Below are positions 1 to 17,499 of a stretch of 20,000 bases of DNA, piece after piece. The number at the start of each line of letters is the position of its first letter. The first letter of the stretch is position 1. The stretch is from an uncultured virus (IMG/VR IMGVR_UViG_3300042397_001048) (Duplodnaviria; Heunggongvirae; Uroviricota; Caudoviricetes; Crassvirales). Position numbers and translations under genes: made by a program. The notes beneath the pieces are model-generated. The model had not been told where the DNA came from, did not search any database, and saw only the letters and a list, made by a program, of their open reading frames with translations. The stretch lies in the IMG/VR virus record IMGVR_UViG_3300042397_001048. The stretch is one strand, 5' to 3'.

Positions 1-150
1 CCAGTCATAGAAAAACTTCTTAGGCAACTGCTTAAAACTCCCGTTGCAAGAATCAACAAAGTTTCGATACATATGATACGCACGAATCTTTGAACCCAAA
101 GGAAGATAGGCATCCTCCTTCCAATCATTAAACTTCTTTGGAACTACCAT
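1..150 (-). CDS. 5' part of an ORF not in the ORF track (runs off the left edge); resembles the C-terminal, putative winged-helix domain of the primase-helicase
   Basis: Manual translation from the ATG at 150: MVVPKKFNDWKEDAYLPLGSKIRAYHMYRNFVDSCNGSFKQLPKKFFYDW, with no stop up to base 1. It is preceded by a TACATTTG -7 box. It aligns with the primase segment encoded at 12575-12715. Confidence 0.8.
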   Translation of the reverse strand, partial: MVVPKKFNDWKEDAYLPLGSKIRAYHMYRNFVDSCNGSFKQLPKKFFYDW

Positions 151-174
151 AACATCTGTTTTTTTAAATTCAAA

Positions 175-182
175 CAAATGTA
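175..182 (-). promoter_or_regulatory. Bacteroidota sigma-A -7 element (TACATTTG) for the leftward ORF
   Basis: CAAATGTA on + reads TACATTTG on -, matching the TAnnTTTG consensus, 24 nt upstream of the ATG at 150. Confidence 0.6.
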
Positions 183-189
183 TGCATTT

Positions 190-510
190 TTGTGTACAAG
201 TGTAAGAAATATCTACAGTTTTCAAATATGGTTTCCATAGGTTGCATGGATAACTAACTGATAATCAGTATCATTTTTTGTAACATAATGTATAAGTGTT
301 CAAGTGTACACTTTATACCTCACTTACTTCTATATATAAATTAATTCCTCTATATATTTTATTTTTTTTTAATTTTCCCTTTTATTTTATTCATTTGTAC
401 ACTTTATAAATAAATAATATATAAATAACTATATATCAATAAGTTATCCATGCAGAGTAAGGAAAGTAAGTTTACATACTTCAGCATTTGTACACACTTT
501 TGTACACTAA
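190..510. repeat. AT-rich ori-like element, copy A (TGTACA repeats, IHF-like site, TTATCCATG boxes)
   Basis: TGTACA at 193, 305, 396, 489 and 501. A 19/21 inverted repeat links 243-263 and 434-454. Collinear blocks are shared with 10220-10420. Confidence 0.75.
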
Positions 511-516
511 AGTAGA

Positions 517-645
517 TTATCTACCCTGACCACGATACTTTTTAGGCTTGCGCTCCTTAGGACCGTAGCTCTTTTTGTACTTGCCAGTACCACGCTTACC
601 AAATGAAATCTTTCTTGAAGACCCTGATGTGTTAGACTTTGCCAT
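517..645 (-). CDS. small, highly basic phage protein ending in KKYRGQGR (42 aa)
   Basis: MAKSNTSGSSRKISFGKRGTGKYKKSYGPKERKPKKYRGQGR. I moved the start to 645 because a TACCTTTG -7 box lies at 657-664. The C-terminal YRGQG[RK] motif is one I recall from aquatic phage hypothetical proteins. Confidence 0.75.
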   Translation of the reverse strand: MAKSNTSGSSRKISFGKRGTGKYKKSYGPKERKPKKYRGQGR

Positions 646-656
646 TGTTTTTTTTG

Positions 657-664
657 CAAAGGTA
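657..664 (-). promoter_or_regulatory. Bacteroidota -7 promoter element (TACCTTTG) for leftward transcription
   Basis: CAAAGGTA on + strand, 11 nt upstream of the ATG at 645. Confidence 0.65.
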
Positions 665-964
665 AAAATTTTGTTAGAAAAATAGGGGTGTTGGGTATCC
701 ACCACATTTTACGCCAAGCGGCCCGATCCGGAAACGGGTTGAATCGACCTAGGGGGGGTCGGATTTCAAACTTTTTCTGTAGGATTTTTGGCTTTTTCTT
801 ACTTAGCCATCTCGCTAATTAGTTAGTTAGATAATTATCTAATTGACTACAGACCGCACGGCACAATTAGACGTTTGCCTAATTATCTATTTAATTGGCC
901 TGCTAAATTGCTACTATTACCCGACCCAATTCGAACAATACAATTAGCAATGTAGCTAATTACC

Positions 965-1049
965 AATCGGTATTATATTGCCGGATCCGGTCGTGTGTGC
1001 CGAAATAAATCACAAACAAAATCGGTAATATATTGCAGGATCCGGTCGT
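965..1049 (+). repeat. 30-bp direct repeat, two copies (28/30), with a GGATCC-centred palindromic core
   Basis: 965-994 AATCGGTATTATATTGCCGGATCCGGTCGT versus 1020-1049 AATCGGTAATATATTGCAGGATCCGGTCGT, separated by 25 nt. Confidence 0.9.
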
Positions 1050-1338
1050 TTCGATTCTCTTTTTTGCCCAAAAATAAACCTATATTTTGCCCAAAATTGC
1101 GGGGCAATTGCCCGTACTTATCGGGTTGCCATAGTCCCAATTTCCGTACGTTTTTAAGTTTTACAAATTTATTTTGCATTACTCACACAAAGTTTTCAAC
1201 GGTTTTTTGTTGTATTATTCCAACAATTTTCAAACCAAAATAGCCCTGGCGTGCTTGAATCGCATTTTTTTATAGGACAAAACCTGGATCCGCCAGGCTA
1301 TGTGCTTATTTTTTTTCTACATTTATTTAACAAATTAT

Positions 1339-1369
1339 TTTGCAGTTATAAAAATCTTTTTTAGTATTG
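1339..1369 (+). promoter_or_regulatory. probable early promoter (-33 TTTG and near-consensus -7 TAGTATTG)
   Basis: TTTG at 1339-1342 and TAGTATTG at 1362-1369 (19-nt spacer), upstream of the ATG at 1393. Confidence 0.5.
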
Positions 1370-1392
1370 CATATCAATTTAAAAGCGCAAAT

Positions 1393-1575
1393 ATGAAAAC
1401 GACCTACATTTTTAACGTATACACGTATACAAATGAATTTGACTATATAGTCAAAACAAAAAAAACAATTAGCATAAAACGGGCTTCAGGCCGTACGGCT
1501 ACGGAATACCTACGTAAAAAATACCCTGACTTTTTGGGCTACTTTATCGAATTAAATAGTATTAAAAATTCATAA
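1393..1575 (+). CDS. hypothetical early protein (60 aa)
   Basis: ORF track 1300..1575. The likely start is MKTTYIF at 1393, after the promoter and an A-rich leader. Confidence 0.6.
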   Translation: MKTTYIFNVYTYTNEFDYIVKTKKTISIKRASGRTATEYLRKKYPDFLGYFIELNSIKNS

Positions 1576-1603
1576 TTCTCACACTCACAAAAAACCTTAC
1601 AAA

Positions 1604-2275
1604 ATGAAAAATCTTACATTCAAATTAAATGGCGTTATCGTTAATTTTCAATTGAAAACTACCAATTCGAAAACGGGCGCATTGATTCAAAACTATATTA
1701 TTCCTACTGAATGGATTAATACAGATGCAAAAATTTCTACTTTATCGGACAAAGCGGTTTGTTTTGACTGCAAGCATTCGAAGGATAAAGAAAAAACCTG
1801 TTACGTACGTAAAGGTCAAAGCGAAATGGGACTATCCTCAAAAGTACGTAGTTTACGTAAAATTGGCCTTGACAATATCCCTGAATTTAGCCCTGAAATT
1901 GAGGCCGATTTGCTTAATGCAATTGAGGGTAAAGGTATTCGATTTGGTTCGTATGGTGAGCCGATTTTGCTAGGTGAAATATTGGTAGGCAAAATTGCAA
2001 AGCGCGCTAAATTTTGGACGGGCTATACCCACCAATGGCATAAAAATAATTGGGCTAAAAATTTCTTTATGGCCTCTGTAGAAAGTCAAACTATTTCTAG
2101 CCTAGCGCAAAAATCAGGCTTCCGTACTTTCTTTGTAGGTCAGGCAAATGACCCTAAAAATTACGTGACCTGTCCCGCTAGTAAAGAGGCGGGCAATAGA
2201 ACTACATGCGATAATTGTAAGCTATGCATGGGCACACAATCCAATGCAAAATCTGTGACAATATTGCCACACTAA
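1604..2275 (+). CDS. Cys-rich conserved phage protein, possibly Fe-S or radical-SAM-like (GP88/DUF7227-like, tentative)
   Basis: Motifs CFDCKH..CYV, IRFGSYGEP, WTGYTHQW, FMASVE, GFRTF and CPASKEAGNRTTCDNCKLC. Confidence 0.6.
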   Translation: MKNLTFKLNGVIVNFQLKTTNSKTGALIQNYIIPTEWINTDAKISTLSDKAVCFDCKHSKDKEKTCYVRKGQSEMGLSSKVRSLRKIGLDNIPEFSPEIEADLLNAIEGKGIRFGSYGEPILLGEILVGKIAKRAKFWTGYTHQWHKNNWAKNFFMASVESQTISSLAQKSGFRTFFVGQANDPKNYVTCPASKEAGNRTTCDNCKLCMGTQSNAKSVTILPH

Positions 2276-2337
2276 AATAAATTTCACACTCACAAAAAGC
2301 CCGCGAGCCGAGGCAAAAATATCGGCTCAAATTTAAA

Positions 2338-2829
2338 ATGGAAAATTTACTAAAAGGTATCGCAAATTTCGAAGGTGATTCAACTACAAATATGCTTGCA
2401 TATTGTGACCCACGCGACACGTGGAATGGATGGGCACGGCCGTACATTCACCACAAATACGTTTATTATTTAATTCAAATGATAAGCGGAGGCGATAGTA
2501 CCTACACGAGACAGGATGGCAATATATTGGTAGTTTATGGGGATGACTATAGCGTTTTGATTAAGCCCATATTGATAGATGGTGAGGAATACTATTATTT
2601 TGGCAATGAGGGCATTTGCTTTGATTTTGAGCCGACAAAAAATGACGGCAAAGCAAGGGCTTTAATTACAGATATTGAGGGGCTTGTATACGATGAGGAC
2701 GTGGAGGAATTGAGCTACGGCGAAGTCGTGGAAGTTTTGACCATAAACAAGGAGAACGAATTTGTGTGGGTGTTAAGTGGTAGCGGTGTGGAGCATGGAA
2801 TTGATATCGAGAGAATAATTTTAATTTAA
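2338..2829 (+). CDS. hypothetical protein (WNGWxxP motif, acidic C-terminus)
   Basis: 163-aa ORF in the co-oriented early cluster. Confidence 0.75.
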   Translation: MENLLKGIANFEGDSTTNMLAYCDPRDTWNGWARPYIHHKYVYYLIQMISGGDSTYTRQDGNILVVYGDDYSVLIKPILIDGEEYYYFGNEGICFDFEPTKNDGKARALITDIEGLVYDEDVEELSYGEVVEVLTINKENEFVWVLSGSGVEHGIDIERIILI

Positions 2830-2849
2830 TAACCTTAACTAGAAAGCAA

Positions 2850-3230
2850 ATGAAAAAGTACATTGATTATTTAAGTGTTGATTTCGGAGTAAATCAAATA
2901 GGTGATTTTAAAATCCAAAGAGACAGCCAAACAGAGGCTATATATTGGACGAATGGGTCTATTAATATTTGGGCTTCGCCCGGGTTTGAGGGCGACGAGG
3001 AAATAGTGGATTTACAGCTCGAATATTACGACGAGAACGGGGATGTTCACACGTCGGACGGGGAAATGTTTTACCTAAAAAATGAGGGCGATTTGTTGGC
3101 GCAAAAGGTTAGGTATTTATCAATCATAGAGGCAATAATTAAAGAGGTTGATTGCATGCAATTTTATACTCATTATTATGAGGAAATGAATAGCGTTTTG
3201 GATAACAATTTTTGGAAAAAATTTAATTAA
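2850..3230 (+). CDS. hypothetical acidic protein
   Basis: 126-aa ORF with an A-rich leader. Confidence 0.75.
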   Translation: MKKYIDYLSVDFGVNQIGDFKIQRDSQTEAIYWTNGSINIWASPGFEGDEEIVDLQLEYYDENGDVHTSDGEMFYLKNEGDLLAQKVRYLSIIEAIIKEVDCMQFYTHYYEEMNSVLDNNFWKKFN

Positions 3231-3237
3231 TAAAAAC

Positions 3238-3486
3238 ATGTATACAATTAATAACCTAGCGAAAACCCTACGCAATAACGGGATAAATGTAGTGGCTGTG
3301 CATGAGTCGACTGACTGGCAAGTAGAGGACAATGAGATACAGCTGGATAATCAAATTTACCTACAGGTGGACGATGAATCCATTGGGGTATATCGAGCAA
3401 ATAGCGATTACAGGATGACCTGTTTAGGCTATTACGAGGAGGTGACATATAGCTTAATTCACAAACTTATCACACTCACGACATGA
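3238..3486 (+). CDS. hypothetical protein
   Basis: 82-aa ORF, tightly packed with its neighbours. Confidence 0.7.
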   Translation: MYTINNLAKTLRNNGINVVAVHESTDWQVEDNEIQLDNQIYLQVDDESIGVYRANSDYRMTCLGYYEEVTYSLIHKLITLTT

Positions 3487-3638
3487 AAAAGCTAATCGCA
3501 TGCATAATTGCCATCGTTTTAATGATGGCTGAAGCACCGGATCCGGGCGGGATCCTCACTTGGATAGGTGGAGGAATAATTTTTATAAGTGTTTTGGATT
3601 TTTTTAAAAAAGTATATAATGAGCAAGAAAATAATTAA
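3483..3638 (+). CDS. small membrane protein (51 aa, not in ORF track)
   Basis: MKKLIACIIAIVLMMAEAPDPGGILTWIGGGIIFISVLDFFKKVYNEQENN. It has an ATGA overlap with the upstream gene and two hydrophobic stretches. Confidence 0.65.
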   Translation: MKKLIACIIAIVLMMAEAPDPGGILTWIGGGIIFISVLDFFKKVYNEQENN

Positions 3639-3828
3639 TTCGGGAGAGTACACGTTGCACGTGGTGAATTCAATGGGTGGCGTGATTATTGTAAAAGTAT
3701 TTGAGAGGGTAAGCAAGGAGCTTGTCGAGTGCTCAATTTTTACAGAGGTCGATGAGACTTTGGAAGATTACGTGACAAAGTTCACAAATAAAACTCAATC
3801 AATTTTAAACTTTTTAAACGCAAATTAA
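3619..3828 (+). CDS. hypothetical protein
   Basis: ORF track 3589..3828. The likely start is MSKKIINSG at 3619. Confidence 0.65.
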   Translation: MSKKIINSGEYTLHVVNSMGGVIIVKVFERVSKELVECSIFTEVDETLEDYVTKFTNKTQSILNFLNAN

Positions 3829-3829
3829 T

Positions 3830-4027
3830 ATGAGAAATTTAAAATTAGATTATGTCATTTACGATTTTGCAAATGATAATACAATCAAATTCTCAAATGG
3901 AGAAATTGTATTGTATGCTGATAAGCAGGAGGCTTTAAATGACTGCCACGGAAATGAGATTGTAATTCCGTGTACTGATTTACCTACACATTGGCAGATG
4001 GAAATTTTAAACTTTTTAAATCAATAA
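3830..4027 (+). CDS. hypothetical protein
   Basis: 65-aa ORF starting 1 nt after the previous stop. Confidence 0.7.
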   Translation: MRNLKLDYVIYDFANDNTIKFSNGEIVLYADKQEALNDCHGNEIVIPCTDLPTHWQMEILNFLNQ

Positions 4028-4031
4028 AGAC

Positions 4032-4271
4032 ATGGCAAACAATTTAGTACTTGACCGAAAATTATTTTTAGACTGGTATTTTAATGGAATCAGTTTTAAT
4101 GATAATGTGTATGTGGCTTTGCTTAATGATGGCAAATTTGAATTGAACATCGAGGAATTACTTTATAGCGTTGTGGCCATGCCTGAATGGGTATTAGTTA
4201 GTGGGCAACATTATGAGCTTGATGCTAATGGCGATGTTGATATAGATAATGTTTCACTTAAATTTAATTAA
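4032..4271 (+). CDS. hypothetical protein
   Basis: 79-aa ORF, tightly packed. Confidence 0.7.
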   Translation: MANNLVLDRKLFLDWYFNGISFNDNVYVALLNDGKFELNIEELLYSVVAMPEWVLVSGQHYELDANGDVDIDNVSLKFN

Positions 4272-4272
4272 A

Positions 4273-4548
4273 ATGGGACTTACAAGACAAGAAGACATTT
4301 GGGCGTGCTATAACTGTAGCGATTTGCAAGGTCGACATGACCTATGGTTCACGGGTGATTTATGTGAAAGGTGTAATCATAAGAGGGTATCCTTATCTGA
4401 TTTGAAAGAAAAAATTGAGGCCATGTATTTGGATTGGCTGAATAATTTTCTGAGTGCTGAGGCACTAGCTGACTATTACGAGATAGATTTAATTAAGGCT
4501 TTGCGAGTTATATCAATTGGCCGTCACATAAACCAACGTAGGGCATGA
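4273..4548 (+). CDS. hypothetical protein with an N-terminal CxxC...CxxC Zn ribbon
   Basis: CYNC...CERC followed by YLDWLNNFLS. The likely start is 4273, just after the previous stop. Confidence 0.7.
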   Translation: MGLTRQEDIWACYNCSDLQGRHDLWFTGDLCERCNHKRVSLSDLKEKIEAMYLDWLNNFLSAEALADYYEIDLIKALRVISIGRHINQRRA

Positions 4549-5159
4549 AAGTATTAGAACTGTTTGCCGGATCCAGGTCGATCGGCAAGATGGCCGACCG
4601 CATGGGATGGGAATGTTATAGCTCTGACATCAATGATTTTGAGGGCATAGATTACGTGGTGAATGTATTGGAGTTTGATGTGAGCAAAGTACCATTTAAG
4701 CCCGACATCATTTGGGCATCGCCACCATGTACATCGTTTAGTGTGGCATCATTGGGTCACCATTGGACTGGTGGTGTGGGTGCATACATTCCAAAGACTG
4801 ACAGTGCAAGATTAGGTATTGCATTAGCTAAAAAAACTTTGGAAATAATTAATCATTTTGACCCAACTTTTTGGTATATTGAGAACCCAAGGGGTATGCT
4901 ACGCAAGATGCCATTTATGCCAAATCATTTACGCAAAGGGGTCACCTATTGCCAGTATGGCGATGACCGCATGAAGCCCACGGACATATGGACTAACAAT
5001 GGATTCTGGACACCGAGACCCATGTGTAAGAACGGTGAAGCTTGTCATGTGTCAGCCCCTCGTGGCTCACAGACAGGCACGCAAGGATTATCTAATCCTT
5101 ATGAGCGAAGTAAACTACCATCATTATTGTGTTACGAAATTTTAAAATCATGTTCATAG
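4545..5159 (+). CDS. short orphan C5-cytosine DNA methyltransferase
   Basis: Motif I VLELFAGS, motif IV WASPPC, motif VI YIENP. It is 204 aa, with no adjacent restriction enzyme. Confidence 0.9.
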   Translation: MKVLELFAGSRSIGKMADRMGWECYSSDINDFEGIDYVVNVLEFDVSKVPFKPDIIWASPPCTSFSVASLGHHWTGGVGAYIPKTDSARLGIALAKKTLEIINHFDPTFWYIENPRGMLRKMPFMPNHLRKGVTYCQYGDDRMKPTDIWTNNGFWTPRPMCKNGEACHVSAPRGSQTGTQGLSNPYERSKLPSLLCYEILKSCS

Positions 5160-5359
5160 ACGACAAACCCGCAAGCTTTAACATAGCTTACGCATCCAAA
5201 GAATGGATGGAGAATTTAGATTTTCAATTAGCATTATCAAGACAAAAATTAGATGAGACAAAACTTAAATCATTTTCGAGAATTAATCCTTATGGGCAAA
5301 AAGAAAGGAAGGCTTATACTGCCATTGAGCAATTGGAGTCAGTTGCAAGTGAGCTTTGA
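5150..5359 (+). CDS. hypothetical protein
   Basis: ORF track 5129..5359. The likely ATG is 5150, overlapping the MTase end. Confidence 0.6.
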   Translation: MFIDDKPASFNIAYASKEWMENLDFQLALSRQKLDETKLKSFSRINPYGQKERKAYTAIEQLESVASEL

Positions 5360-5498
5360 TAAAGACCCTATTACGGGCAGGTACATCCTGCAGGCATTTG
5401 AGAATGCGACATGGCTATTCACATTGCATGAGTATAGCTTAGATAGAGTGGCACAAGAGTTTGACAATTTAATAAACGAATACGTATGTTGGGATTAG
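5292..5498 (+). CDS. hypothetical protein (start uncertain)
   Basis: ORF track 5253..5498. It fills the gap before the gene at 5486. Confidence 0.5.
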   Translation: MGKKKGRLILPLSNWSQLQVSFDKDPITGRYILQAFENATWLFTLHEYSLDRVAQEFDNLINEYVCWD

Positions 5499-5638
5499 TA
5501 GTTATTCAGTATGTGTTGGCATTGGCAGTAGTAATCTGTGCGGTGCTAGGCTATAGTTGGCAGGCCATAATGTTGTCAATGTGTATTTATTCAGTGTATA
5601 TATTAATTAAAAATGGACGATCAAAAAACGATTTATAA
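5486..5638 (+). CDS. small membrane protein (50 aa)
   Basis: Manual translation MLGLVVIQYVLALAVVICAVLGYSWQAIMLSMCIYSVYILIKNGRSKNDL. Confidence 0.6.
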   Translation: MLGLVVIQYVLALAVVICAVLGYSWQAIMLSMCIYSVYILIKNGRSKNDL

Positions 5639-5708
5639 GGCCATAGTTATATGGATTATTTGTAGTGCAGTAATTTTTTATTTAGCACATTTTATTTATA
5701 AAGTGTAA
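5613..5708 (+). CDS. membrane micro-protein (31 aa)
   Basis: MDDQKTIYKAIVIWIICSAVIFYLAHFIYKV, with TAATG coupling to the next ORF. Confidence 0.55.
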   Translation: MDDQKTIYKAIVIWIICSAVIFYLAHFIYKV

Positions 5709-5788
5709 TGGACAAGAGACAAGCAGGGGTATTCACCCTATTCACATGGGCATTATTTGTTTTACTAGTAATAATTTTTTGCAGATGA
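5708..5788 (+). CDS. membrane micro-protein (26 aa)
   Basis: MDKRQAGVFTLFTWALFVLLVIIFCR, with a TAATG overlap upstream and an ATGA overlap downstream. Confidence 0.55.
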   Translation: MDKRQAGVFTLFTWALFVLLVIIFCR

Positions 5789-6147
5789 TAACAGATGTAG
5801 ATTTAATTGACGAGATAGCTAAGAAGATTATCTATCGTCACCGTATCAAGAAGTTAGATATGTTCAGAAACACTAAGGTGTTTCCGGTAGTAAACGCACG
5901 CCACCATTTTTATTACCTGTGCAAGGGTGCAGGTATCAAGGTGTGCGAGATTCAAAGGTATTGCGAGAGGTATGGGTATCCCATTGACCACGCATCGGTT
6001 TTGTATGGTATTAAAAAATTTAAATCAAATGAAAACAATATCGCTAATTATAATAGGCTTGGTGGGATTATTGATCGTGAGTGGCTTGAGGACCGCTCCG
6101 ACAAAAAGCGAACCAAGAATCGTGATTGTGAACCACAATTGGAGTGA
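5785..6147 (+). CDS. stand-alone DnaA domain IV-like (Bac_DnaA_C) helix-turn-helix protein
   Basis: VVNARHHFYYLCK...EI...IDHASVLYGIKK follows the DnaA-C pattern (ARQIAMYL...EIG...RDHTTVLHA.RK). The start at 5785 is inferred from ATGA coupling. Confidence 0.75.
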   Translation: MITDVDLIDEIAKKIIYRHRIKKLDMFRNTKVFPVVNARHHFYYLCKGAGIKVCEIQRYCERYGYPIDHASVLYGIKKFKSNENNIANYNRLGGIIDREWLEDRSDKKRTKNRDCEPQLE

Positions 6148-6247
6148 TAAATTTGACAGCTCTTACGTTGACCGATTAGGTACACGCATTTATTGCATGA
6201 AAAAAATTACTTACATTAAAGAACTAAAGAAATGGGGGTTGTATTAG
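6029..6247 (+). CDS. small protein with an N-terminal signal or TM segment (72 aa)
   Basis: MKTISLIIIGLVGLLIVSGLRT..., lying within ORF track 5927..6247. It overlaps the tail of the DnaA-like gene. Confidence 0.55.
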   Translation: MKTISLIIIGLVGLLIVSGLRTAPTKSEPRIVIVNHNWSDKFDSSYVDRLGTRIYCMKKITYIKELKKWGLY

Positions 6248-6411
6248 AAGTAGCCATTGGCTCAATTTTCTTGATGTCATTGATGGTATATGTTGAGAGA
6301 AAAAATACGGATAAGGTTTTTTTAAATATTATACAAGGGGCATTGACAATAGGTTTTGTTTTGTTTGCTTATATTATAGGTCATTTCATTTTAAACTTAT
6401 TCCTGTCATGA
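6232..6411 (+). CDS. small two-TM membrane protein (59 aa)
   Basis: MGVVLEVAIGSIFLMSLMVYVERKNTDKVFLNIIQGALTIGFVLFAYIIGHFILNLFLS. Confidence 0.6.
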   Translation: MGVVLEVAIGSIFLMSLMVYVERKNTDKVFLNIIQGALTIGFVLFAYIIGHFILNLFLS

Positions 6412-6554
6412 AGAAACTAGTATTTATTATTGTGGTCGCATTGGCCTATTCTTGCGTGCGTGATGCATGCAAGCCTGGCATCCCCAAGGGGAGAACAAAA
6501 ATGATTAACAAGTTGGGTAGAGAGTATAACTATAAACCATATACACCATGGTAA
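6408..6554 (+). CDS. small putative lipoprotein (48 aa)
   Basis: MKKLVFIIVVALAYSC-VRDACKPG..., with a basic N-terminus, a hydrophobic core and a lipobox-like Ser-Cys16. It shows ATGA and TAATG coupling. Confidence 0.65.
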   Translation: MKKLVFIIVVALAYSCVRDACKPGIPKGRTKMINKLGREYNYKPYTPW

Positions 6555-6649
6555 TGAAGATAATTAGTTTTCTATTTTTTGGTACGATTGGATTAGTATT
6601 CATATTGCCATTAGCAATTATTTTAAGATTTTTAACTAAGCCAAGATGA
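6554..6649 (+). CDS. membrane micro-protein (31 aa)
   Basis: MKIISFLFFGTIGLVFILPLAIILRFLTKPR, coupled to genes on both sides. Confidence 0.55.
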   Translation: MKIISFLFFGTIGLVFILPLAIILRFLTKPR

Positions 6650-7134
6650 TAAGAGTTGATGAACTTGGATGCCCACATTGTGAGTACGTGTTCACGAAGG
6701 AATACGTTGCTGAGAGATTTGATACGACATCAAGCTTACGCATTGTGTCAGGCTACTGCAAGGGATGCAGTAAGCGTGTGACGATCCGGATCAACACGAG
6801 TGGAGCAACTAAGATTTATCCATTGCATAATGGGTATTTGGATGTTGGAGATGACATGGACAGAGATAGGGGTGGGTATTTAAAGCACCGCCCTAATTGT
6901 CCACACTGCCAGCAGGCTAATGATGTGGCACTGATAGATAAGTTCTTTATCAAGTCAGGGAACAAGACAGCGATGAACTTGACATGTGAGCATTGCAGGC
7001 AGAAGGTGCTTGTCAATAGAAGTAAGTCTGGGTTTTATAATTTATATCCATACACAGACTACAAGAAACAACGTAAAATCAAATCGGGATGGGTACAAGT
7101 ACGCTTTCCTAAACAAAAAGAGAATGACACCTAA
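6646..7134 (+). CDS. protein with two tandem Zn-ribbon domains
   Basis: CPHC..CKGC..SG....IYP followed by CPHC..CEHC..SG....LYP. Confidence 0.8.
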   Translation: MIRVDELGCPHCEYVFTKEYVAERFDTTSSLRIVSGYCKGCSKRVTIRINTSGATKIYPLHNGYLDVGDDMDRDRGGYLKHRPNCPHCQQANDVALIDKFFIKSGNKTAMNLTCEHCRQKVLVNRSKSGFYNLYPYTDYKKQRKIKSGWVQVRFPKQKENDT

Positions 7135-7351
7135 AGAAAAGGCAGAAGAATTATTTAACAAGTTTACTCTTTATCTTGGTACTGATGCTGAGGGCATTGA
7201 ATACTATGTTAATGATTTAGAGGCAAAGCGTTGTGCAATAATTGCAGTAGATGAAATATTATGGCTATTGAATGAAATAGATTATGACACATACTCTTAT
7301 AATGCAATTGTATTTTATAATGAAGTTAAACAAGAAATAGAAAAGTTATGA
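7124..7351 (+). CDS. conserved phage hypothetical protein (MTPKEKAEEL...AIIAVDEIL...EVKQEIEKL type)
   Basis: ORF track 6986..7351. The likely start is 7124. Confidence 0.75.
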   Translation: MTPKEKAEELFNKFTLYLGTDAEGIEYYVNDLEAKRCAIIAVDEILWLLNEIDYDTYSYNAIVFYNEVKQEIEKL

Positions 7352-7668
7352 CACAAGAAGAATTCAATTATACCATTATTGGTTTATTTCAGGATGCTGA
7401 AGAAATTAGATTGACTAAGCAGCCAGAGTACACACTTGAAAATGTAGATGTGCTAAATAATTTTAAGCAATCAGCCAAGCGTGCAGGCGTATCGCCTATG
7501 CAAGTGTGGTCAATATTTTTTGATAAGCAACTGACTAGTATTCAGTCACATATCAAAAACCCTAACCTAGTTCAGGCCGAGCCTTTGGACAGCAGATGGG
7601 CTGATCTGTACAACTATTTATTGCTAGGTTTTGCACTTTATAAAGAAAGTGATGAACAAAATAAATAA
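7348..7668 (+). CDS. Nmad1/DUF1599-like all-alpha nucleotide-modification-associated protein
   Basis: KQPEYT...DVLNNFK...DKQL...EPLDSRWADLYNYLLL pattern. Confidence 0.7.
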   Translation: MTQEEFNYTIIGLFQDAEEIRLTKQPEYTLENVDVLNNFKQSAKRAGVSPMQVWSIFFDKQLTSIQSHIKNPNLVQAEPLDSRWADLYNYLLLGFALYKESDEQNK

Positions 7669-7671
7669 CTT

Positions 7672-7702
7672 TTTGTATATATTAAATTTAATTTTATCTT
7701 TG
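7672..7702 (+). promoter_or_regulatory. Bacteroidota sigma-A promoter for the replication operon
   Basis: TTTG at 7672-7675, a 19-nt spacer, then TATCTTTG at 7695-7702. The ATG is at 7728. Confidence 0.75.
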
Positions 7703-7727
7703 TCGCACACATTTAATCAAATCAAAT

Positions 7728-8327
7728 ATGTCAAACAAATCAGTATTCGAGCAACTCAGCTCGCTTAACCTTTCGTCTAAAACAGAGAAGAGAGGTAATC
7801 TAACTTACTTATCCTGGGCTCATGCCTGGGCTGAATGCAAGAAGTTATTCCCCGACATGACACGCACGGTGTATGAGAGTGAAACAGGCATGAACTATTT
7901 CACGGATGGTTCAACTGCGTGGGTTAAGGTTGGGGTGACCATCCAAGGTCAGGAGCACATTGACTACTTGCCTGTCATGGACATGCGTAATCAATCAGTG
8001 CCACTAGCTAACATCACATCGATGCAGGTGAACAAGACTATTCAGCGTTCGACCGTTAAGGCGTTGGCGTTACATGGCTTGGCGTTGAACATCTACGCTA
8101 AGGAAGACTTCCCTGCTGAATCAGACTCAAACATTCAGGCGGTGAAGGCACAGCCTAAGGCTACGGCAAAGGTGGCGTTGGTAGAGGGCGATGCTAATTG
8201 GGAGAAGGTGTCGACATTTGTCATTGACAACATGGGCACATCAACTGCTGACATCATTAAGAAGTTGTCAGTTAAGTATGAGATTTCAGATTCAGTTAAG
8301 AAAGCAATCGACAAACTACGCAAGTAA
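7728..8327 (+). CDS. Sak3/DUF1071 single-strand annealing protein
   Basis: LTYLSWAHAW, WVKVGVTI, YLPVMDMRN and NKTIQRSTVKALALHGLALNIYAKED. Confidence 0.9.
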   Translation: MSNKSVFEQLSSLNLSSKTEKRGNLTYLSWAHAWAECKKLFPDMTRTVYESETGMNYFTDGSTAWVKVGVTIQGQEHIDYLPVMDMRNQSVPLANITSMQVNKTIQRSTVKALALHGLALNIYAKEDFPAESDSNIQAVKAQPKATAKVALVEGDANWEKVSTFVIDNMGTSTADIIKKLSVKYEISDSVKKAIDKLRK

Positions 8328-8590
8328 TGGAGGCTAAAGAAACTTTTGATTATTCAGGCGAATTAGGATTCATGAACCCAAGATTTGACCTAGAAGAAAT
8401 TGAAATTGATAGAGACTCTACTGTATTATATAACACAAAAGCTTATTGGTATGTATTTTTTTGCACAAAAACCAAAAGAGGTATTAATCAATATGGAAGA
8501 GTTGTATTACAAGATGCTACTAAATATTTAATTAGCAGAGGATTGATGGACGAAAATTATAATCAAATTAAATACTTTGAAGAAGAATAA
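8327..8590 (+). CDS. hypothetical protein between Sak3 and the exonuclease
   Basis: 87-aa ORF with TAATG coupling. It looks more AT-rich than its flanks. Confidence 0.7.
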   Translation: MEAKETFDYSGELGFMNPRFDLEEIEIDRDSTVLYNTKAYWYVFFCTKTKRGINQYGRVVLQDATKYLISRGLMDENYNQIKYFEEE

Positions 8591-8591
8591 T

Positions 8592-9323
8592 ATGTCAAAT
8601 ATAATCGAAACACTACGCAATGACACCGAGTATTACTCGGGTATCGGCAAGAACTACTTATCTAACTCAGACATCAGTGCGTTGCTATACAACCCGATGC
8701 AGTTTGGTAAGGACAAAGATAAGACTCCTGCTATGCTTGCAGGGTCTTACTTCCACGCATCTATTCTTGAGCCTGAGAAGGTGGTGAACTTCCCAAAGGT
8801 GGAGGCATCGACACGTACGACCAACATCTACAAGGAGGCCATAGCATCACATGGTGTGGACATGTTATTACTTCAGAAGGAAGGGGATGACATTGACCGC
8901 ATGGTCAAGGCTTTGCTTGCCAACTTTACATTCTACGACATGATCCGTGACAAAGGTAACGAGTATGAGGTGCCAGCTGTCGGTGAGATTGGTGGTGTGC
9001 AATGGAAGGGCAAGTCGGATATAGTCGGTCAGGAAATCCTGATTGACCTGAAGACCACAGGAAACCTAGATGATTTCCGATTCTCTGCACGCAAATATAA
9101 TTACGATAGTCAAGCATATATATATAATCAATTGTTCGGTAAGCCTATGGTATTCATCGCTGTTGAAAAAGAAACCTGTCGGACAGGTCTATTTGAATGC
9201 AGTGATGAGTTCCTAGACAAGGGACGAGAGAAGGTATACAAGGCTATCGAGGTGTACCAAAAGTTCTTTGGAGCAAATGCGACCGATGACATTACTCAGT
9301 ATTTTTTAACCCAAACTTTATAA
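8592..9323 (+). CDS. PD-(D/E)XK exonuclease (RecE/ExoVIII-like, DUF3799-like)
   Basis: YLSNS, GSYFHASILEP, WKGKSD, IDLKTT, YDSQAYIY and FIAVEK. It lies beside Sak3 and SSB. Confidence 0.9.
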   Translation: MSNIIETLRNDTEYYSGIGKNYLSNSDISALLYNPMQFGKDKDKTPAMLAGSYFHASILEPEKVVNFPKVEASTRTTNIYKEAIASHGVDMLLLQKEGDDIDRMVKALLANFTFYDMIRDKGNEYEVPAVGEIGGVQWKGKSDIVGQEILIDLKTTGNLDDFRFSARKYNYDSQAYIYNQLFGKPMVFIAVEKETCRTGLFECSDEFLDKGREKVYKAIEVYQKFFGANATDDITQYFLTQTL

Positions 9324-9328
9324 TTATT

Positions 9329-9634
9329 ATGGCACAATTAATTTCAGCATCTATTGATGTATCAAAAATCTCCAAGGACAAGTTAATCAAAGGAGCAAAA
9401 GGTAACTACCTTAACATTACTATCTCTATCAATGATGAGGTGGACCAGTATGGCAACCAAGTAGGAATCTACGAGTCGCAGTCTAAGGACGAGCGTGATG
9501 CTAAGGACAAGAAGAATTACTTAGGTAACGGCAAGATTGCTTGGACATCTGATGGTGGCTCAACAGCCAAGCCTGCACCTGCTAAGACAGCACCTGCTCC
9601 TATTGTTGAGGAGGAAAGTGACTTGCCATTTTAA
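9329..9634 (+). CDS. single-stranded DNA-binding protein (Bacteroidota phage type)
   Basis: SIDVSKI...YLNITI...DQYGN...YLGNGK, a Pro/Ala linker and an acidic EEESDLPF tail. It follows the SSAP and exonuclease. Confidence 0.8.
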   Translation: MAQLISASIDVSKISKDKLIKGAKGNYLNITISINDEVDQYGNQVGIYESQSKDERDAKDKKNYLGNGKIAWTSDGGSTAKPAPAKTAPAPIVEEESDLPF

Positions 9635-9661
9635 AATGGAAGTTTTCTAAATTATTCTAGT

Positions 9662-9669
9662 TACCTTTG
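9662..9669 (+). promoter_or_regulatory. -7 element TACCTTTG upstream of the HNH-like gene
   Basis: TAnnTTTG match 20 nt before the ATG at 9690. Confidence 0.55.
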
Positions 9670-9689
9670 TAGAAACAAATGTAAATATT

Positions 9690-10217
9690 ATGATACAAAT
9701 AAAACAATGTTTTAAGTGTGGTGAATTAAAAGAGTTGACTGAATTTTACAAGCATAAACAAATGGTTGATGGGCATTTAAACAAATGCAAGTCATGCACC
9801 AAAAATGATGTTCACGAAAATTACAGCAAAAACTCAAAAGACCAATTGTTTGTAGAGCAAGAGAGAAAAAGGGGAAGAAATAAGTACCATAGATTATATC
9901 ATGGTACAGGGAAATCTAAACCAAAATCAATTTCTAGATATCGAATTTTATATCCTGAAAAAATAAATGCAAAGAACAATTGTAGTCACATTAAACCACC
10001 ACAACCTGGGCTTGAGAAACATCATTGGTCATACAATGAAGAACATTATAAAGACTTGATATTCCTAACTAAGAAGCATCACATGAAAGCACATCGCTTC
10101 ATTGTTTATGATCAAGAAAGAATGATGTATAGAATGTATGATACCAATGAGTTACTTGATACCAAAGAAAAACATGAATCATTTATTTTATTCTGTATAG
10201 AAAACAAAGAAGACTAA
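9690..10217 (+). CDS. Zn-binding HNH-like (homing) endonuclease
   Basis: N-terminal CFKC..EFY....DG..NKCKSC and C-terminal EKHHWSY...IFLTKKHHMKAH. It is AT-rich and has its own -7 box. Confidence 0.7.
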   Translation: MIQIKQCFKCGELKELTEFYKHKQMVDGHLNKCKSCTKNDVHENYSKNSKDQLFVEQERKRGRNKYHRLYHGTGKSKPKSISRYRILYPEKINAKNNCSHIKPPQPGLEKHHWSYNEEHYKDLIFLTKKHHMKAHRFIVYDQERMMYRMYDTNELLDTKEKHESFILFCIENKED

Positions 10218-10450
10218 GATGTACAAATGTATAAAATAGAGGGGGCTTACGACTATATATAAAAACTTACTTAGTGCTTTTTTATTTTTTTTTCGTTTTC
10301 CCCTTTTATTTTCTACATTTTGTACACTAAAGAATATAAATAACTAATAATCAATTAGTTATCCATGTAAACTTTAAAATATTTTGTACACTTTTTATAC
10401 ATAAAAATGTACAACTTTATAAATAATCCAATTAATCAAAGAAAAGTACA
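10218..10450. other. putative replication origin, copy B, immediately upstream of the primase-helicase
   Basis: Non-coding and very AT-rich. TGTACA occurs at 10220, 10321, 10385 and 10408. AATCAATTAGTTA (10349-10361) fits the IHF consensus WATCAANNNNTTR. TTATCCATG is at 10359-10367. Confidence 0.7.
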
Positions 10451-12823
10451 ATGGAAGTAACAATCTTTCGCAACATAAAAGAGACTGCTGTACCTTTCCA
10501 TAAAGATGTGCTGGATATACTAGTTCGCATCAAGGAAGGTAAGACTAAGGATCTTGTAAGAAAGATAAGGCTTGAGAAGAATAAGGAGGAACGCAACAAA
10601 CTTAAGCAGGATTTACCTGCGATATGTTTCTCCGGTAAGTTCTCTAAGCGTGATGATGCATCATTGCTTAAGCACAGTGGCCTTATCTGTTTAGACTTTG
10701 ACAACTTTGCTAGTCATGCCGAGATGCTGGCTAAGAAAGAAGAACTGTCGGCTGACAACTACACATTCTCTGTGTTTGTCTCGCCATCAGGTAACGGGTT
10801 AAAGGTATTGGTTAAGATACCAACTAACCCTGAGAAGCATAAGGCATACTTCAATGCTTTAGAAAAGTATTACAACTGCTCTGAGTTTGATGTGACATCT
10901 AAGAACATATCACGTGTGTGCTATGAGTCTTACGACCCGACTATCTATGTGAATATACATTCGCATGAGTGGAATCAAATAGACGAAGGCGAGATTGACC
11001 ACGTGACTAAGGACCAACGTCCTACTATACCTATCGATGACGAGGATGAGATTATCTCACGCCTAGCTAAATGGTGGGAAGGTAAGTATGGCTTTGTGAA
11101 TGGCTCAAGAAACAATAACCTATTCATCTTAGCTTCAGCTTTCAACCAGTACGGGGTGACTAAGTCTGAGGCTATGTACAGACTGATGGCGTTCGCATCA
11201 GAAGACTTTAACTCCAAGGAGATTCAGTCTGTCATCGAGTCGGCATACAAGCTAAAGGACCAGCATGCAACCAAATACTTTGAGGACACACACAAGGTCA
11301 ACGAGGTGAAGGTGCAGTTAAATCGTGGCGTGCCAAAAAAGGATGTCCGTTCTCAATTGAAAGCCTCCGGGGTGGAGGACGGAACTATTGATTCAGTCTT
11401 AACTAAGATTGAAGAGGAGGAAAGCAAGAATATATTTTGGACTAAGAGCGATAAGGGTGTGGTGACTTTGATACACTACGACCTTAAGCGTTTCTTGGAA
11501 GAGAATGGGTATCGTAAGTATGTGCCTGAGGGTAACAAAGGATTCATATTTGTACGTATCAATCAGAACCTGATAGAGATGTGCAGTGAGGATGACATCA
11601 AAGACTTTGTGCTCAACCATATACTAACTAATTTCCAAGACTTAAGCGTGTACAATTTCTTTGCAGACAAGACTCGATTCTTTAGGGAAGACTTTCTGTC
11701 GATGCTAGATTCCATCTCAATTTATTTTGTTGAGGATACAAAGGATGAGGCGTACCTATACTACCGCAATGGCGTGGTGAAGGTTACAAAGAATGAGGTG
11801 ATACTACTTAACTACGAGGATCTTGGCGGGTACATTTGGTCGGACCAGGTGATACAGCGAGACTTTATATTCTGTCCCTCAGATGAGTGTGACTACAAAA
11901 CATTTATACGCAACATTGGCGGGCATAATGACAAGCGTGTCTCATCCATCGAGTCGACCATTGGCTATGTCCTGCATGCGTTCAAGAACGGTGGGTATTG
12001 CCCTGCGGTGATTATTAATGACGAGGTGATATCTGAGAACCCTGAGGGTGGCACAGGCAAGGGCTTGTTCATGAACGGCATTAGTCGCATGAAGAAGTTG
12101 GTGACCATTGATGGTAAGTCATTCTCTTTCGACAAATCATTTTCTTATCAGTTGGTGACAACAGACACGCAGGTGCTAGTGTTCGATGACGTGAAGAAGA
12201 ACTTTGACTTCGAGCGATTATTCTCTGTCATCACTGAGGGTATAACTATTGAGCGCAAGAACAAGGATGCAATTAAGATTCCATTCCATAAGTCACCTAA
12301 GGTGGTGATAACAACTAACTACGCTATCCAAGGTAAGGGTAACTCATTTGAGAGGCGTAAGTGGGAGATGGAGTTCAAGCAGTTCTACAGCAAAGACTTC
12401 ACGCCACAGGACGAGTTCGGTAGATTGCTGTTTAATGATTGGAATGTAGACGATTGGTGTGCATTTGACAACTACATGGTCAAGGTGCTAAAAAGCTACT
12501 TGCACACTGGGCTAATCAAGTGCGAGTTTGTCAACCTTAAGGAGCGCAAGTTCAGGGCTGAGACTAACGCTGAGTTTGTTGAGTGGATAGCAGAGTTTGG
12601 TTCAACGGTCGTGCCGTTCAATGAGAAGTTCAGACCTGACAAGGCGTTTGATAAGTTCATCATTGACAACAATGGCATGTTCAGAATGCTGTCCAAGCAG
12701 AGATTTAATTCTTGGCTACGTACGTATGCATTGCATAAGACAGGTCGCAATCCTGAGGAGGGTCGTGATGCTGCTGGAAAGTGGATGACAATTGAGTATA
12801 AAGAACAATTAGAACTTTTATAA
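10451..12823 (+). CDS. primase-helicase (BT4734/VirE_N-like primase, PriCT-like domain, SF3/D5-like helicase, C-terminal putative wHTH)
   Basis: KLKQDLPAICFSGKF, SGLICLDFD, FVSPSGNGLK, GSRNNNLF, Walker A GGTGKG, Walker B VLVFDDV and motif C VITTN. Confidence 0.92.
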   Translation: MEVTIFRNIKETAVPFHKDVLDILVRIKEGKTKDLVRKIRLEKNKEERNKLKQDLPAICFSGKFSKRDDASLLKHSGLICLDFDNFASHAEMLAKKEELSADNYTFSVFVSPSGNGLKVLVKIPTNPEKHKAYFNALEKYYNCSEFDVTSKNISRVCYESYDPTIYVNIHSHEWNQIDEGEIDHVTKDQRPTIPIDDEDEIISRLAKWWEGKYGFVNGSRNNNLFILASAFNQYGVTKSEAMYRLMAFASEDFNSKEIQSVIESAYKLKDQHATKYFEDTHKVNEVKVQLNRGVPKKDVRSQLKASGVEDGTIDSVLTKIEEEESKNIFWTKSDKGVVTLIHYDLKRFLEENGYRKYVPEGNKGFIFVRINQNLIEMCSEDDIKDFVLNHILTNFQDLSVYNFFADKTRFFREDFLSMLDSISIYFVEDTKDEAYLYYRNGVVKVTKNEVILLNYEDLGGYIWSDQVIQRDFIFCPSDECDYKTFIRNIGGHNDKRVSSIESTIGYVLHAFKNGGYCPAVIINDEVISENPEGGTGKGLFMNGISRMKKLVTIDGKSFSFDKSFSYQLVTTDTQVLVFDDVKKNFDFERLFSVITEGITIERKNKDAIKIPFHKSPKVVITTNYAIQGKGNSFERRKWEMEFKQFYSKDFTPQDEFGRLLFNDWNVDDWCAFDNYMVKVLKSYLHTGLIKCEFVNLKERKFRAETNAEFVEWIAEFGSTVVPFNEKFRPDKAFDKFIIDNNGMFRMLSKQRFNSWLRTYALHKTGRNPEEGRDAAGKWMTIEYKEQLELL

Positions 12824-14634: not shown

Positions 14635-15862
14635 GCTCCGAGATTACCAAAAAAAAATAGCTGACGATGGCGTTGATATCATAAATAAATATGGATTACT
14701 TTATCTTGCTTTACAAGTACGTGTTGGCAAGACCATGACCTCATTAGCTATCTGCGATAAGTTAAAATGTGATGATGTTCTGTTTATCACGAAGCTTAAG
14801 GTTGTGCCAGGCATACAGAAAGACCACAAGGATTTGGGATGTAAGTTTAAACTTACATGTTTAAATTATGAGTCATTACATAAACTTGAAGGTTTAAATT
14901 TTGATGTGATTATTTGCGATGAAGCTCACACCTTAGGAGCATTCCCTAAGCCTAGCAAGCGTGCCAAGCAAGTCAAAGACTTAGTCAAGAAGTATAAGTC
15001 TAAAGTTATATTTTTGTCGGGCACACCAACACCTGAGTCGCATAGTCAGATGTACCATCAGTTGTACGTGCATCCTAACAACCCGTTCAAGGAGTATGTA
15101 AACTTTTACCGGTGGGCTAACGATCACGTGAGAGTGAAGATAAAATACATCGGAGCCATGAAGGTTAACGATTACTCGGAAGCCTTAAAAGATAAGATAA
15201 TGGAGAAGGTTAATCCGCTGATGATTACCTATACGCAGGAGGCTGCTGGGTTTGAATCTAAGATTAAAGAGATTGTCTATTATGTCCCAATGAAAGACTC
15301 GACGTATATTATGTGTGGTAGACTAAAGAAGGACTTAGTCATACAAGGTAAGGACGATGTAATCTTGGCCGACACAGGTGCAAAACTTATGAACAAGTTA
15401 CATCAGATGTACAGTGGAACCATCATACTCGAGTCAGGTAAAAGGCAAGTGCTTGATGACACGAAGGCTCAGTTTATTCTCAGGGCTTTTCATGGTAAGA
15501 AGATTGGTATCTTCTACAAGTTTAAGGCTGAGTGGGATTTGCTTAAGAGTGTTTACGGTGATGACTTGACTGATGACCTGGAGGAGTTTAATGCTACTGA
15601 TAAGAACATTGCTCTTCAGATTGTCTCAGGTCGTGAAGGTATTAGCCTTCGCAATGCGGATGTGCTCGTGTACTTTAACATTGACTTCTCTGCTGTTTCT
15701 TATTGGCAGTCACGTGATAGGATGACCACTATTGATCGCAAGTTCAATGAAGTCTACTGGATATTTGCTAGGGGTGGTATTGAGGATAAGATTTACAAGA
15801 CTGTATTAGAAAAAAAGGATTATACCTTATCTTATTTCAAGAAAGATTTTTTATCTTCGTGA
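14627..15862 (+). CDS. superfamily 2 helicase (SNF2/ResIII-like, DEAH)
   Basis: LRDYQ Q-motif, VRVGKT, ICDEAH, LSGTP, GREGISL and QSRDR. Confidence 0.92.
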   Translation: MVKLRDYQKKIADDGVDIINKYGLLYLALQVRVGKTMTSLAICDKLKCDDVLFITKLKVVPGIQKDHKDLGCKFKLTCLNYESLHKLEGLNFDVIICDEAHTLGAFPKPSKRAKQVKDLVKKYKSKVIFLSGTPTPESHSQMYHQLYVHPNNPFKEYVNFYRWANDHVRVKIKYIGAMKVNDYSEALKDKIMEKVNPLMITYTQEAAGFESKIKEIVYYVPMKDSTYIMCGRLKKDLVIQGKDDVILADTGAKLMNKLHQMYSGTIILESGKRQVLDDTKAQFILRAFHGKKIGIFYKFKAEWDLLKSVYGDDLTDDLEEFNATDKNIALQIVSGREGISLRNADVLVYFNIDFSAVSYWQSRDRMTTIDRKFNEVYWIFARGGIEDKIYKTVLEKKDYTLSYFKKDFLSS

Positions 15863-17318: not shown

Positions 17319-17436
17319 TATTTATTTTAATATGGTTCATGAGAATGGGTCTATTGCTGAGTTTGAGATTTATTCTGACGACGTAACAATAGATTCTATA
17401 ATTGAAGCATTAGTGTTATTGATCGAGTTGGTGTAA
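17302..17436 (+). CDS. small hypothetical protein (44 aa) whose 3' end overlaps the tRNA-like gene
   Basis: MQKKNSIYFNMVHENGSIAEFEIYSDDVTIDSIIEALVLLIELV. Confidence 0.45.
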   Translation: MQKKNSIYFNMVHENGSIAEFEIYSDDVTIDSIIEALVLLIELV

Positions 17437-17493
17437 TTGGCAACACGCCCTCCTAGGTTAAGGGTGATGCTCGTTCGACTCGGGCACTCGGTT
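17422..17493 (+). tRNA. atypical or pseudo tRNA, nominal anticodon AGG (Pro)
   Basis: Acceptor ATCGAGT/ACTCGGT, D arm GTGT-AATTGGCA-ACAC, anticodon arm CCCTC-CTAGGTT-AAGGG, T arm GCTCG-TTCGACT-CGGGC. No CCA is encoded. Confidence 0.65.
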
Positions 17494-17499
17494 AAATAT

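Follow-up and report, generated by a model that had tools for sequence, protein, structure and literature searches.

The window analysed in this work is a stretch of 20,000 nucleotides (nt) from an uncultured virus of the Crassvirales (IMG/VR record IMGVR_UViG_3300042397_001048). At its left edge it contains the beginning of a small minus-strand gene that adjoins an AT-rich non-coding element (element A) and, 10 kb away, a second copy of that element (element B) followed by a primase-helicase gene (Table 1). A first-pass annotation, made from the sequence alone, had proposed that a minus-strand open reading frame (ORF) missing from the list of ORFs runs from position 150 out of the window, that it repeats the C-terminal domain of the primase-helicase without the primase or the helicase in front, and that both genes lie beside copies of the same element, forming a duplicated module of a site and its reader. 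The ORF proved to be real, and the translation of its frame is MVVPKKFNDWKEDAYLPLGSKIRAYHMYRNFVDSCNGSFKQLPKKFFYDW.

Table 1. Positions of the features described in the text, in the window unless a related locus (L number) is given.
Feature	Position	Strand	Basis or location
Tandem winged-helix gene, first 50 codons	1-150	-	ATG at 150-148, frame open to the window edge
Element A, left arm, and leader of the tandem winged-helix gene	151-292	-	Inverted repeat I3
Element A, core	293-510	+	Alignment to element B
Very basic ORF, 42 aa, starting MAKSNTSG.., rich in K/R/G	520-645	-	Between element A and the GC-rich region
Endonuclease-like ORF	9690-10217		Directly before element B
Element B	10218-10450	+	Between the endonuclease-like ORF and the primase start
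Primase-helicase, 790 aa	10451-12823	+	Pfam and PHROG matches
Primase C-terminal winged helix, residues ~702-790	12554-12820	+	AF2 model, VIA-align, hhalign
Alternative slot cassette, starting MKLYKK..IRVNI	L042 1708-1983; L048 1184-1459; L050 1218-1511; L051 2669-2983
Phage GroEL/GroES	L033 2047-3150; L055 1197-2303; L052 6547-8550		Directly downstream of the tandem winged-helix gene
Word arrays of distant lineages	L031 2814-2969; L032 9912-9985		Directly upstream of the primase

The small gene and its product

The 50 codons present in the window cover most of an N-terminal winged helix, up to the recognition helix. A search for longer proteins with the window fragment retrieved P0021, which is 100% identical to the window's 50 residues and has 168 amino acids (aa) from its MVVPKKF start; the other 118 residues of the window protein were taken from P0021, a cluster representative at at least 90% identity. 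Contig L056 is near-identical to the left end of the window. By six-frame search of five of the 31 IMG/VR loci matched by the primase, one ortholog was located, in the related genome G003 (62% identical to the 50-aa fragment, E 1.6e-19) as an open frame with an MV(V/I)P start and 164-165 aa, and a further protein, P0011, showed 52% identity (E 3e-20). When 5.8 billion clustered proteins were searched with the G003 ortholog, eight proteins were matched, and a HMMER profile run against 1.84 billion representatives (E <= 1e-3) gave a family of 11 proteins of 74-184 aa. All 11 of the 11 members examined are basic (isoelectric point, pI, 9.0-9.8), the small protein having a pI of 9.4 overall and each half of P0021 one of about 9.1. 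Neither the small protein nor the primase tail matched any family in Pfam, PHROGs or NCBIfam, and the scans of the small protein against these databases revealed no nuclease or other effector domain and no Rep family. Megablast of window positions 1-4000 against GenBank phages and an exact 50-mer search of IMG/VR gave no match, tblastn of the fragment against GenBank phages gave chance matches only (E >= 4), and no related locus was found in searches with the window fragment, P0014 and P0019. Judged by these searches, the family is rare and unannotated.

Relationship to the primase-helicase tail

The small protein consists of two tandem winged-helix domains, each of them homologous to the C-terminal winged helix of the primase-helicase. 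The latter enzyme contains a BT4734-like N-terminal primase domain, PriCT_1, DUF5906 (residues 532-625; a P-loop domain of the superfamily 3 (SF3)/D5 type) and the C-terminal winged helix, and is matched over its full length by phrog_28855 (E 6.7e-249). With the fragment of 50-75 aa alone, similarity to the primase was no better than chance: BLASTP of the 75-aa fragment against the primase gave a best E of 0.53, and the register of the first-pass alignment was absent from its report. Starting from P0021, BLASTP aligned both halves onto residues 700-781 of the window primase, the N-half with 31% identity over 61 aa (E 3e-6) and the C-half with 29% over 83 aa (E 8e-7). Profile comparisons with hhalign, in which the small-protein family (16 sequences, alignment A4) was set against 11 primase tails (alignment A3), matched the tail with the N-half (Prob 98.1, E 1e-13, score 71.8), the C-half (Prob 99.2, E 2e-19, score 104.5) and the whole family (Prob 98.9, E 1.1e-17), and the two halves matched each other as well (Prob 94.5, E 8e-8). 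Among 101 controls, the reversed profile scored 20.9, the maximum of all, and 100 column shuffles reached at most 19.7. The hhalign register is that of the first-pass alignment, in which 11 identities in 34 ungapped residues were found again on recounting; that alignment spans primase residues 721-757, and its range has to be corrected from 12575-12715 to 12575-12721, with the upstream FVEW at residues 709-712. BLASTP and hhalign thus bear out the claim that the ORF encodes a homologue of the primase-helicase C-terminal domain with neither primase nor helicase in front of it.

In addition, the distant member P0014 is 61% identical to primase residues 747-777 (31 aa, E 3e-9), and when ten related genomes were searched in six frames with the small protein, the primase tail came out in nine, either as the top match other than orthologs or as the sole one (E 6e-4 to 0.013). 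In a maximum-likelihood tree of 42 domain copies, all 15 N-halves formed one clade (99/99) and all 16 C-halves another (98/94), the two clades branching in parallel inside and the C-halves lying closer to the primases. Since N- and C-halves form separate clades, the tree indicates that the small protein derives from a single old tandem duplication of a primase-tail-like domain, with the primase tail representing the type from which both halves descend. A recent copy of the phage's own primase tail was rejected as the source, the tree and the HMMER profile search revealing an old and diverged family.

Structural models agreed on the class of fold. The AF2 (AlphaFold2) model of the primase tail is a winged helix with a predicted local distance difference test (pLDDT) score of 85.7 and the topology H-H-(strand)-H-H-E-E (H, helix; E, strand), its elements being H17-30, a short strand, H39-49, H59-74, E79-83 and E86-91. 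The small-protein model was built on the G003 ortholog with seven sequences (pLDDT 71). Its N-half is a clear H-E-H-H-E-E winged helix (pLDDT about 65-83; H5-13, E20-23, H24-34, H44-54, E59-63, E66-71), and its C-half is less certain, with pLDDT below 50 in the last 11 residues. When compared with 48,161 chains by VIA-align, the N-half matched RFX5 (Z 8.0), RFX1 (7.4), the cullin WH-B domain (6.3), phage P4's origin-binding domain (OBD; 1ka8; Z 6.2, root-mean-square deviation 2.7, 68 residues aligned, rank 5 of 48,161) and the tail of the African swine fever virus (ASFV) PrimPol (8wvz_A residues 833-906; Z 5.6); no RepE-type chain was among the matches listed for it. The primase tail matched the RFX1 DNA-binding domain (Z 6.9) and then kleisin and other winged helices. 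As a VIA-align Z below 8 may reflect a common fold only, these values support the fold class, a specific kinship with the P4 domain being no more than possible; the modelling supports a primase tail that folds as a winged helix, perhaps of the RFX1/P4-OBD kind. The weak rows obtained with Foldseek were nearly all winged-helix DNA binders, with 1ka8 at rank 38 (E 1.6). As for the Pox_D5 family (PF03288), Pfam gave no match at E <= 1 on the tail or the small protein, and the sole lead was the nearest ESM-Atlas cluster, in which 12% of the members carry PF03288.

Elements A and B and their surroundings

Element A is about 360 bp of AT-rich non-coding DNA between the left-edge ORF and the small ORF at 520-645. 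Its left arm contains a TAnnTTTG-type box on the minus strand (175-182), a TGTACA word (193-198) and an inverted copy of a palindrome box (239-269); TAnnTTTG is the consensus of the Bacteroidota -7 motif. Owing to this extra word and inverted box, element A and its reverse complement can be aligned with each other (61.5% over 335 nt, E 3.6e-13). In the core, TGTACA (305), CTATATATA, a T-run, TTTTCCC-TTTTATTTT and TTTGTACAC (393-401) are followed by the palindrome box (419-452) and by TTTGTACAC again at 486-494 and 498-506. Elements A and B are paralogous DNA: positions 293-452 align with 10215-10367 at 72% identity over 164 nt (E 1.3e-19), in agreement with the earlier observation that both genes lie beside copies of one and the same element. 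Both have, in the same order and orientation, an inverted TGTACA word, CTATATATA, the T-run, TTTTCC..TTTTATTTT and then TACATTTTGTACAC, the AT-rich palindrome box, and two to three more words of which the last is inverted; this block order is common to all 13 aligned element copies. TGTACA occurs in element B, which is about 230 bp long, at 10220, 10321, 10385 and 10408, and 15 times in the whole window (6.6 expected); nine of these 15 words fall in A and B, together 2.9% of the window (binomial P 5.7e-11). One short word is clustered, in either orientation, about a conserved palindrome and a centre that is rich in AT and has a T-run; by analogy, the layout of A and B is that of iteron origins. 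A DnaA-box reading of TTATCCATG, at the end of the palindrome box, was rejected because this end is not conserved among the 13 copies. No Rfam match was found on positions 1-1500.

The pair of elements is kept in six of six close relatives (G001-G004, G006 and G007). When five complete genomes of relatives were compared with B, each gave exactly two matches at E <= 1e-12, the next-best place having E >= 0.002, and B itself is conserved at 97% in G002 and G004 and at 81-83% in G003 and G006. In L018 and L024 the 260 nt preceding the primase start consist in part or entirely of other sequence, and B is found further upstream, as it is in G004 (about 230 nt), which points to small insertions between B and the primase. 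Two distant primase lineages contain a repeat array of a different word directly upstream of the primase (..TCGTCA type in L031, TCAACAC type in L032), and L032 retains a version of the palindrome.

The same DNA could be read as the promoter/operator regions of two rightward transcription units (1300-10217, and from the primase onward) and not as origins, with the tandem winged-helix protein as an ordinary transcription factor of helicase-tail descent, either an autorepressor or a timing switch. Both cores are indeed oriented like the rightward genes, and B lies between the end of the upstream ORF and the primase; the small gene has a putative promoter that is overlapped by a TGTACA word; winged-helix repressors prevail among the weak Foldseek rows; and the gene is accessory, like many phage regulators. 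However, to the right of A there are a converging ORF (520-645) and, up to the first plus-strand ORF, some 650 nt without coding capacity, the words fit the Bacteroidota -7 motif poorly, and a scan of positions 1-1400 for sigma-70-type promoters and for terminators gave no more sites than shuffled sequences. Words in two orientations round an AT-rich centre, changing between primase lineages, form instead the pattern of an iteron origin. We consider the promoter/operator explanation rather unlikely, though well worth keeping in view.

Four metagenome loci carry the small gene: two copies of the G003 type, one of the window type (L056) and one of a third type (L055). All three types share one arrangement, with a GC-rich non-coding region followed by element A, the tandem winged-helix gene and GroEL. 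The proposed duplicated module of site and reader holds only in part: the small gene is beside A, but on its far side and on the opposite strand, whereas the primase is downstream of B and on the same strand. ORF, element A and element B do not regularly occur together in related phages, the slot being otherwise occupied by an unrelated gene of 91-104 aa (G001, G002, G006 and G007), for which no family was matched, or by nothing, no ORF of at least 50 aa being present in G004. The small proteins are 39-62% identical to each other, that of L055 being only 39% identical to the G003 type. GroEL is identical over most of its length in L055 and L033, where the adjoining small genes are the 39% identical pair, and this points to mosaic exchange at this junction.

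Behind the small gene, G003 contains GroEL, GroES, ORFs of unknown function, a tail-fibre-like ORF and an endolysin, all within 6 kb. The first-pass annotation had also considered that the product might recognise a packaging site in the manner of a small terminase, element A being then a pac site, and a small DNA-binding protein heading an operon that leads toward morphogenesis and lysis genes would suit such a function. This reading was dropped, and we give it hardly any credence: GroEL and GroES come directly next, a scan of 10 ORFs in the 6 kb that follow in G003 gave no match to a terminase family (and the same holds for L055), none is annotated in about 10 kb leftward of the junction in the uncultured podovirus MW202828, and most relatives are without the gene.

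The remainder of the window is a phage replication/recombination block with genes for a Sak-type annealing protein, a PDDEXK exonuclease, a methyltransferase, a SNF2-type helicase and HNH proteins. The nearest named relatives are Flavobacterium-type phages and MW202828 (primase 56.8% identical), and the source phage is of Bacteroidota type. A small plus-strand protein (5746-6147) has a weak match to the DnaA C-terminal helix-turn-helix (Pfam E 5.9e-4, below the cut-off), and its counterpart in MW202828 is annotated as dnaA. A tRNA-Pro gene (anticodon AGG) is located at 17421-17494 on the plus strand, within the replication region, and local word clusters inside coding DNA were seen at 1801-1854 and 14845-14892 (TACGTAA x4 / GTTTAAA x4). 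Next to element A, the ORF at 520-645 is kept in G001 and L056 and absent from that place in G003 and L055; no family was matched by its product. Beyond it, where leftward and rightward genes diverge, a relatively GC-rich and ORF-poor stretch of about 640 nt (660-1300) contains CTAATTA four times at 815-956 and a 30-nt direct repeat (965-994 and 1020-1049, 93%) with CCGGATCCGG-like palindromes. This stretch is 88-89% conserved in G001 and has an RNA-fold z-score of -3.6; it may represent a structured RNA, a further region for protein binding or the actual origin.

Possible functions of the small protein

Three observations bear on what the small protein may bind. At the start of the recognition helix, the signature [ST][KR]Q.FN was found in 14 of 16 C-halves and in P0021, and SKQRFN in the seven close-clade primases of alignment A3, being absent from its four distant primases. 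The protein is basic, as described above. Finally, a putative -7 box is located 24 nt before the ATG, with the TGTACA word at 193-198 another 11 nt upstream, and boxes of this kind also lie ahead of the slot gene in G003, G001 and L055. On account of the C-half signature, the basic pI and the relative position of box and word, we take it as most likely that the small protein binds the words of the primase tail. Our preferred reading, to which we assign a probability of roughly 0.4, is that it binds the same words as the primase tail, modulates the primase-helicase at A and B, and represses its own promoter. According to this proposal, the primase tail would read the TGTACA words, in the manner of P4 alpha and of the Rep proteins of Staphylococcus aureus pathogenicity islands (SaPIs), and the small protein, whose C-half has the primase's recognition-helix signature, would bind the same words in both elements. 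Devoid of helicase and primase, it would modulate primase-helicase loading as an accessory protein, competing with the primase-helicase for A and B or bridging its binding there. It would probably also repress its own leftward promoter, which overlaps TGTACA 193-198, and it might damp or redirect origin firing as the leftward operon comes on, given that the gene heads the operon of GroEL, GroES and the endolysin side. That the small protein binds DNA and has a role in replication or transcription is something we infer from sequence, and the same applies to TGTACA binding, competition, looping and a late switch as put forward by the first-pass annotation.

Several results weigh against this proposal. 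Concerning homology and fold, the HMMER search of 1.84 billion representatives with the family profile reached no primase; 1ka8 was outside the top 50 of the 48,161 chains for the primase-tail model; the VIA-align Z scores are middling (8 or lower) and within 1-2 units of those of many unrelated winged-helix domains; Foldseek gave nothing in the Protein Data Bank (PDB) at E <= 1e-3 for either model; and a sequence-profile search of the PDB gave nothing relevant, including no match to 1ka8. At the level of the residues, the recognition helix of the N-half has diverged ([SP]K..FY), and the primase tail is near neutral (pI 6.8). As to the sites, that A or B is an origin we infer from layout alone, and the orientation of both copies along the rightward genes fits promoter/operator regions too; no array was found within 260 nt of the primase in L025, L029 and L030, and the relation between word and primase lineage rests on three lineages (the window clade, L031 and L032) with three words. 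With regard to the gene, the reader part of the duplicated module did not generalise: the tandem winged-helix gene was found in one of ten records of relatives, element A being kept without it, and in one IMG/VR locus against 31 matched by the primase, in a scan that used two short peptide patterns for the small gene and would miss diverged members. The gene is dispensable.

A different explanation would have the small protein act on the primase-helicase and not on DNA, pairing with its tail and disrupting or altering hexamers or origin complexes. The Cnr protein of P4 has reportedly been proposed to act in this way on the origin-binding domain of alpha, domains of one family often pair, and the small protein is homologous to the tail; moreover, its N-half has kept the wing motif while lacking a primase-like recognition-helix signature. 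Against this, both halves and all 11 members examined are basic, the C-half retains the recognition-helix signature, and no interface was seen in the present analysis. Prediction of a complex between the small protein and the primase tail scored 0.00 in a run with no controls, and weighs neither way. We regard such a protein-protein mechanism as quite improbable.

A more elaborate form of DNA binding, which we find doubtful, would be a headless initiator in which each winged helix holds A or B, 10 kb apart, and thereby handcuffs the two sites as a switch to the late programme, the gene being one of several interchangeable cassettes of the slot. If this were true, handcuffing would make the genome pass from initiation that depends on the origin, and from early rightward transcription, to its late programme, and related phages would differ in replication control or cross-interference.

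The small protein might also be an origin decoy directed at co-infecting relatives or satellites that share TGTACA, blocking their replication. The gene is patchy, fast-evolving and located in a variable slot, its products being as divergent as described above next to near-identical GroEL, and there is a precedent for borrowed initiator specificity in Odn of phage ICP1 (PMC8263062, available portion). However, a decoy would also hit the phage itself because its own A and B carry the same word, and no nuclease or effector domain was found in the family scans; we hold this explanation to be very improbable.

Origin-reading tails of SF3 primase-helicases and small regulators of initiators are already known. 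As described in the available portions of the papers cited, a C-terminal winged helix is the origin-binding part of P4 alpha and of other D5-family helicases (PMC4889955), the tail of ASFV C962R resembles the P4 OBD and RFX1 (PMC10516667), pRN1 ORF904 is similar (PMC2777425), the C-terminal winged helix of SaPI Rep binds oppositely oriented iterons on either side of an AT-rich region (PMC9371898), and ICP1 Odn copies the origin specificity of PLE RepA and targets its iterons (PMC8263062). The system described here resembles that of P4 alpha in its SF3 helicase with a C-terminal winged helix, its two separated copies of a repeat site and its extra small protein; it differs in having a BT4734-like/PriCT primase domain, that of P4 being of the DnaG type, and in showing no sequence match to 1ka8. 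In P4, ori and crr are said to be two separated repeat-bearing sites, with Cnr as a proposed small modulator of the initiator; unlike Cnr, the small protein studied here can be shown to be homologous to the tail, of which it has two copies. Replication is also known to be regulated by shortened forms of the initiator, made from in-frame internal starts of the same gene, as with f1 gene X, R6K short pi and phiX A*. They share with the function proposed here an initiator piece that regulates without the catalytic part, whereas the small gene is a separate, old and tandemly duplicated one in a variable slot. Iteron-plasmid Rep proteins (WH1-WH2, Rep_3 type) have two tandem winged helices in one protein of ~20-30 kDa; the small protein has a tandem of this sort, but no Rep family matched it in Pfam, PHROGs or NCBIfam and no RepE-type chain was among the matches listed for its N-half.

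The iteron-like layout of element B beside the initiator gene is also like that of the self-loading helicases Rep and PriRep of SaPIs and other phage-inducible chromosomal islands. In contrast to SaPIs, the array is found upstream of the gene instead of downstream, there is another full copy at a distance of 10 kb, and the tail has a free-standing paralogue, none being described for SaPIs in the available portion of PMC9371898. ASFV C962R also ends, behind its SF3 helicase, in a tail that is a winged helix of the RFX1/P4-OBD type; it belongs to a eukaryotic virus, and according to the available portion of PMC10516667 its tail is not duplicated as a separate gene and no origin words are known. 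ICP1 Odn is likewise a second protein with the DNA-binding specificity of an initiator, but it is fused to a nuclease and targets the origin of a parasite (PMC8263062, available portion). A search of the full-text literature, assessed by titles and abstracts, found no description of a free-standing gene for a tandem primase-helicase tail beside a duplicated origin-like element.

If the small protein reads the same TGTACA words as the primase, the two would form a compact and testable pair of one DNA site and two readers. Such a pair could serve the study of how replication is timed or limited in phages of Bacteroidota, and would give a bench test of origin recognition by the tails of this SF3/D5-type helicase family. 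If the reading is true, the small protein may govern the place or the time at which the phage begins to replicate its DNA.

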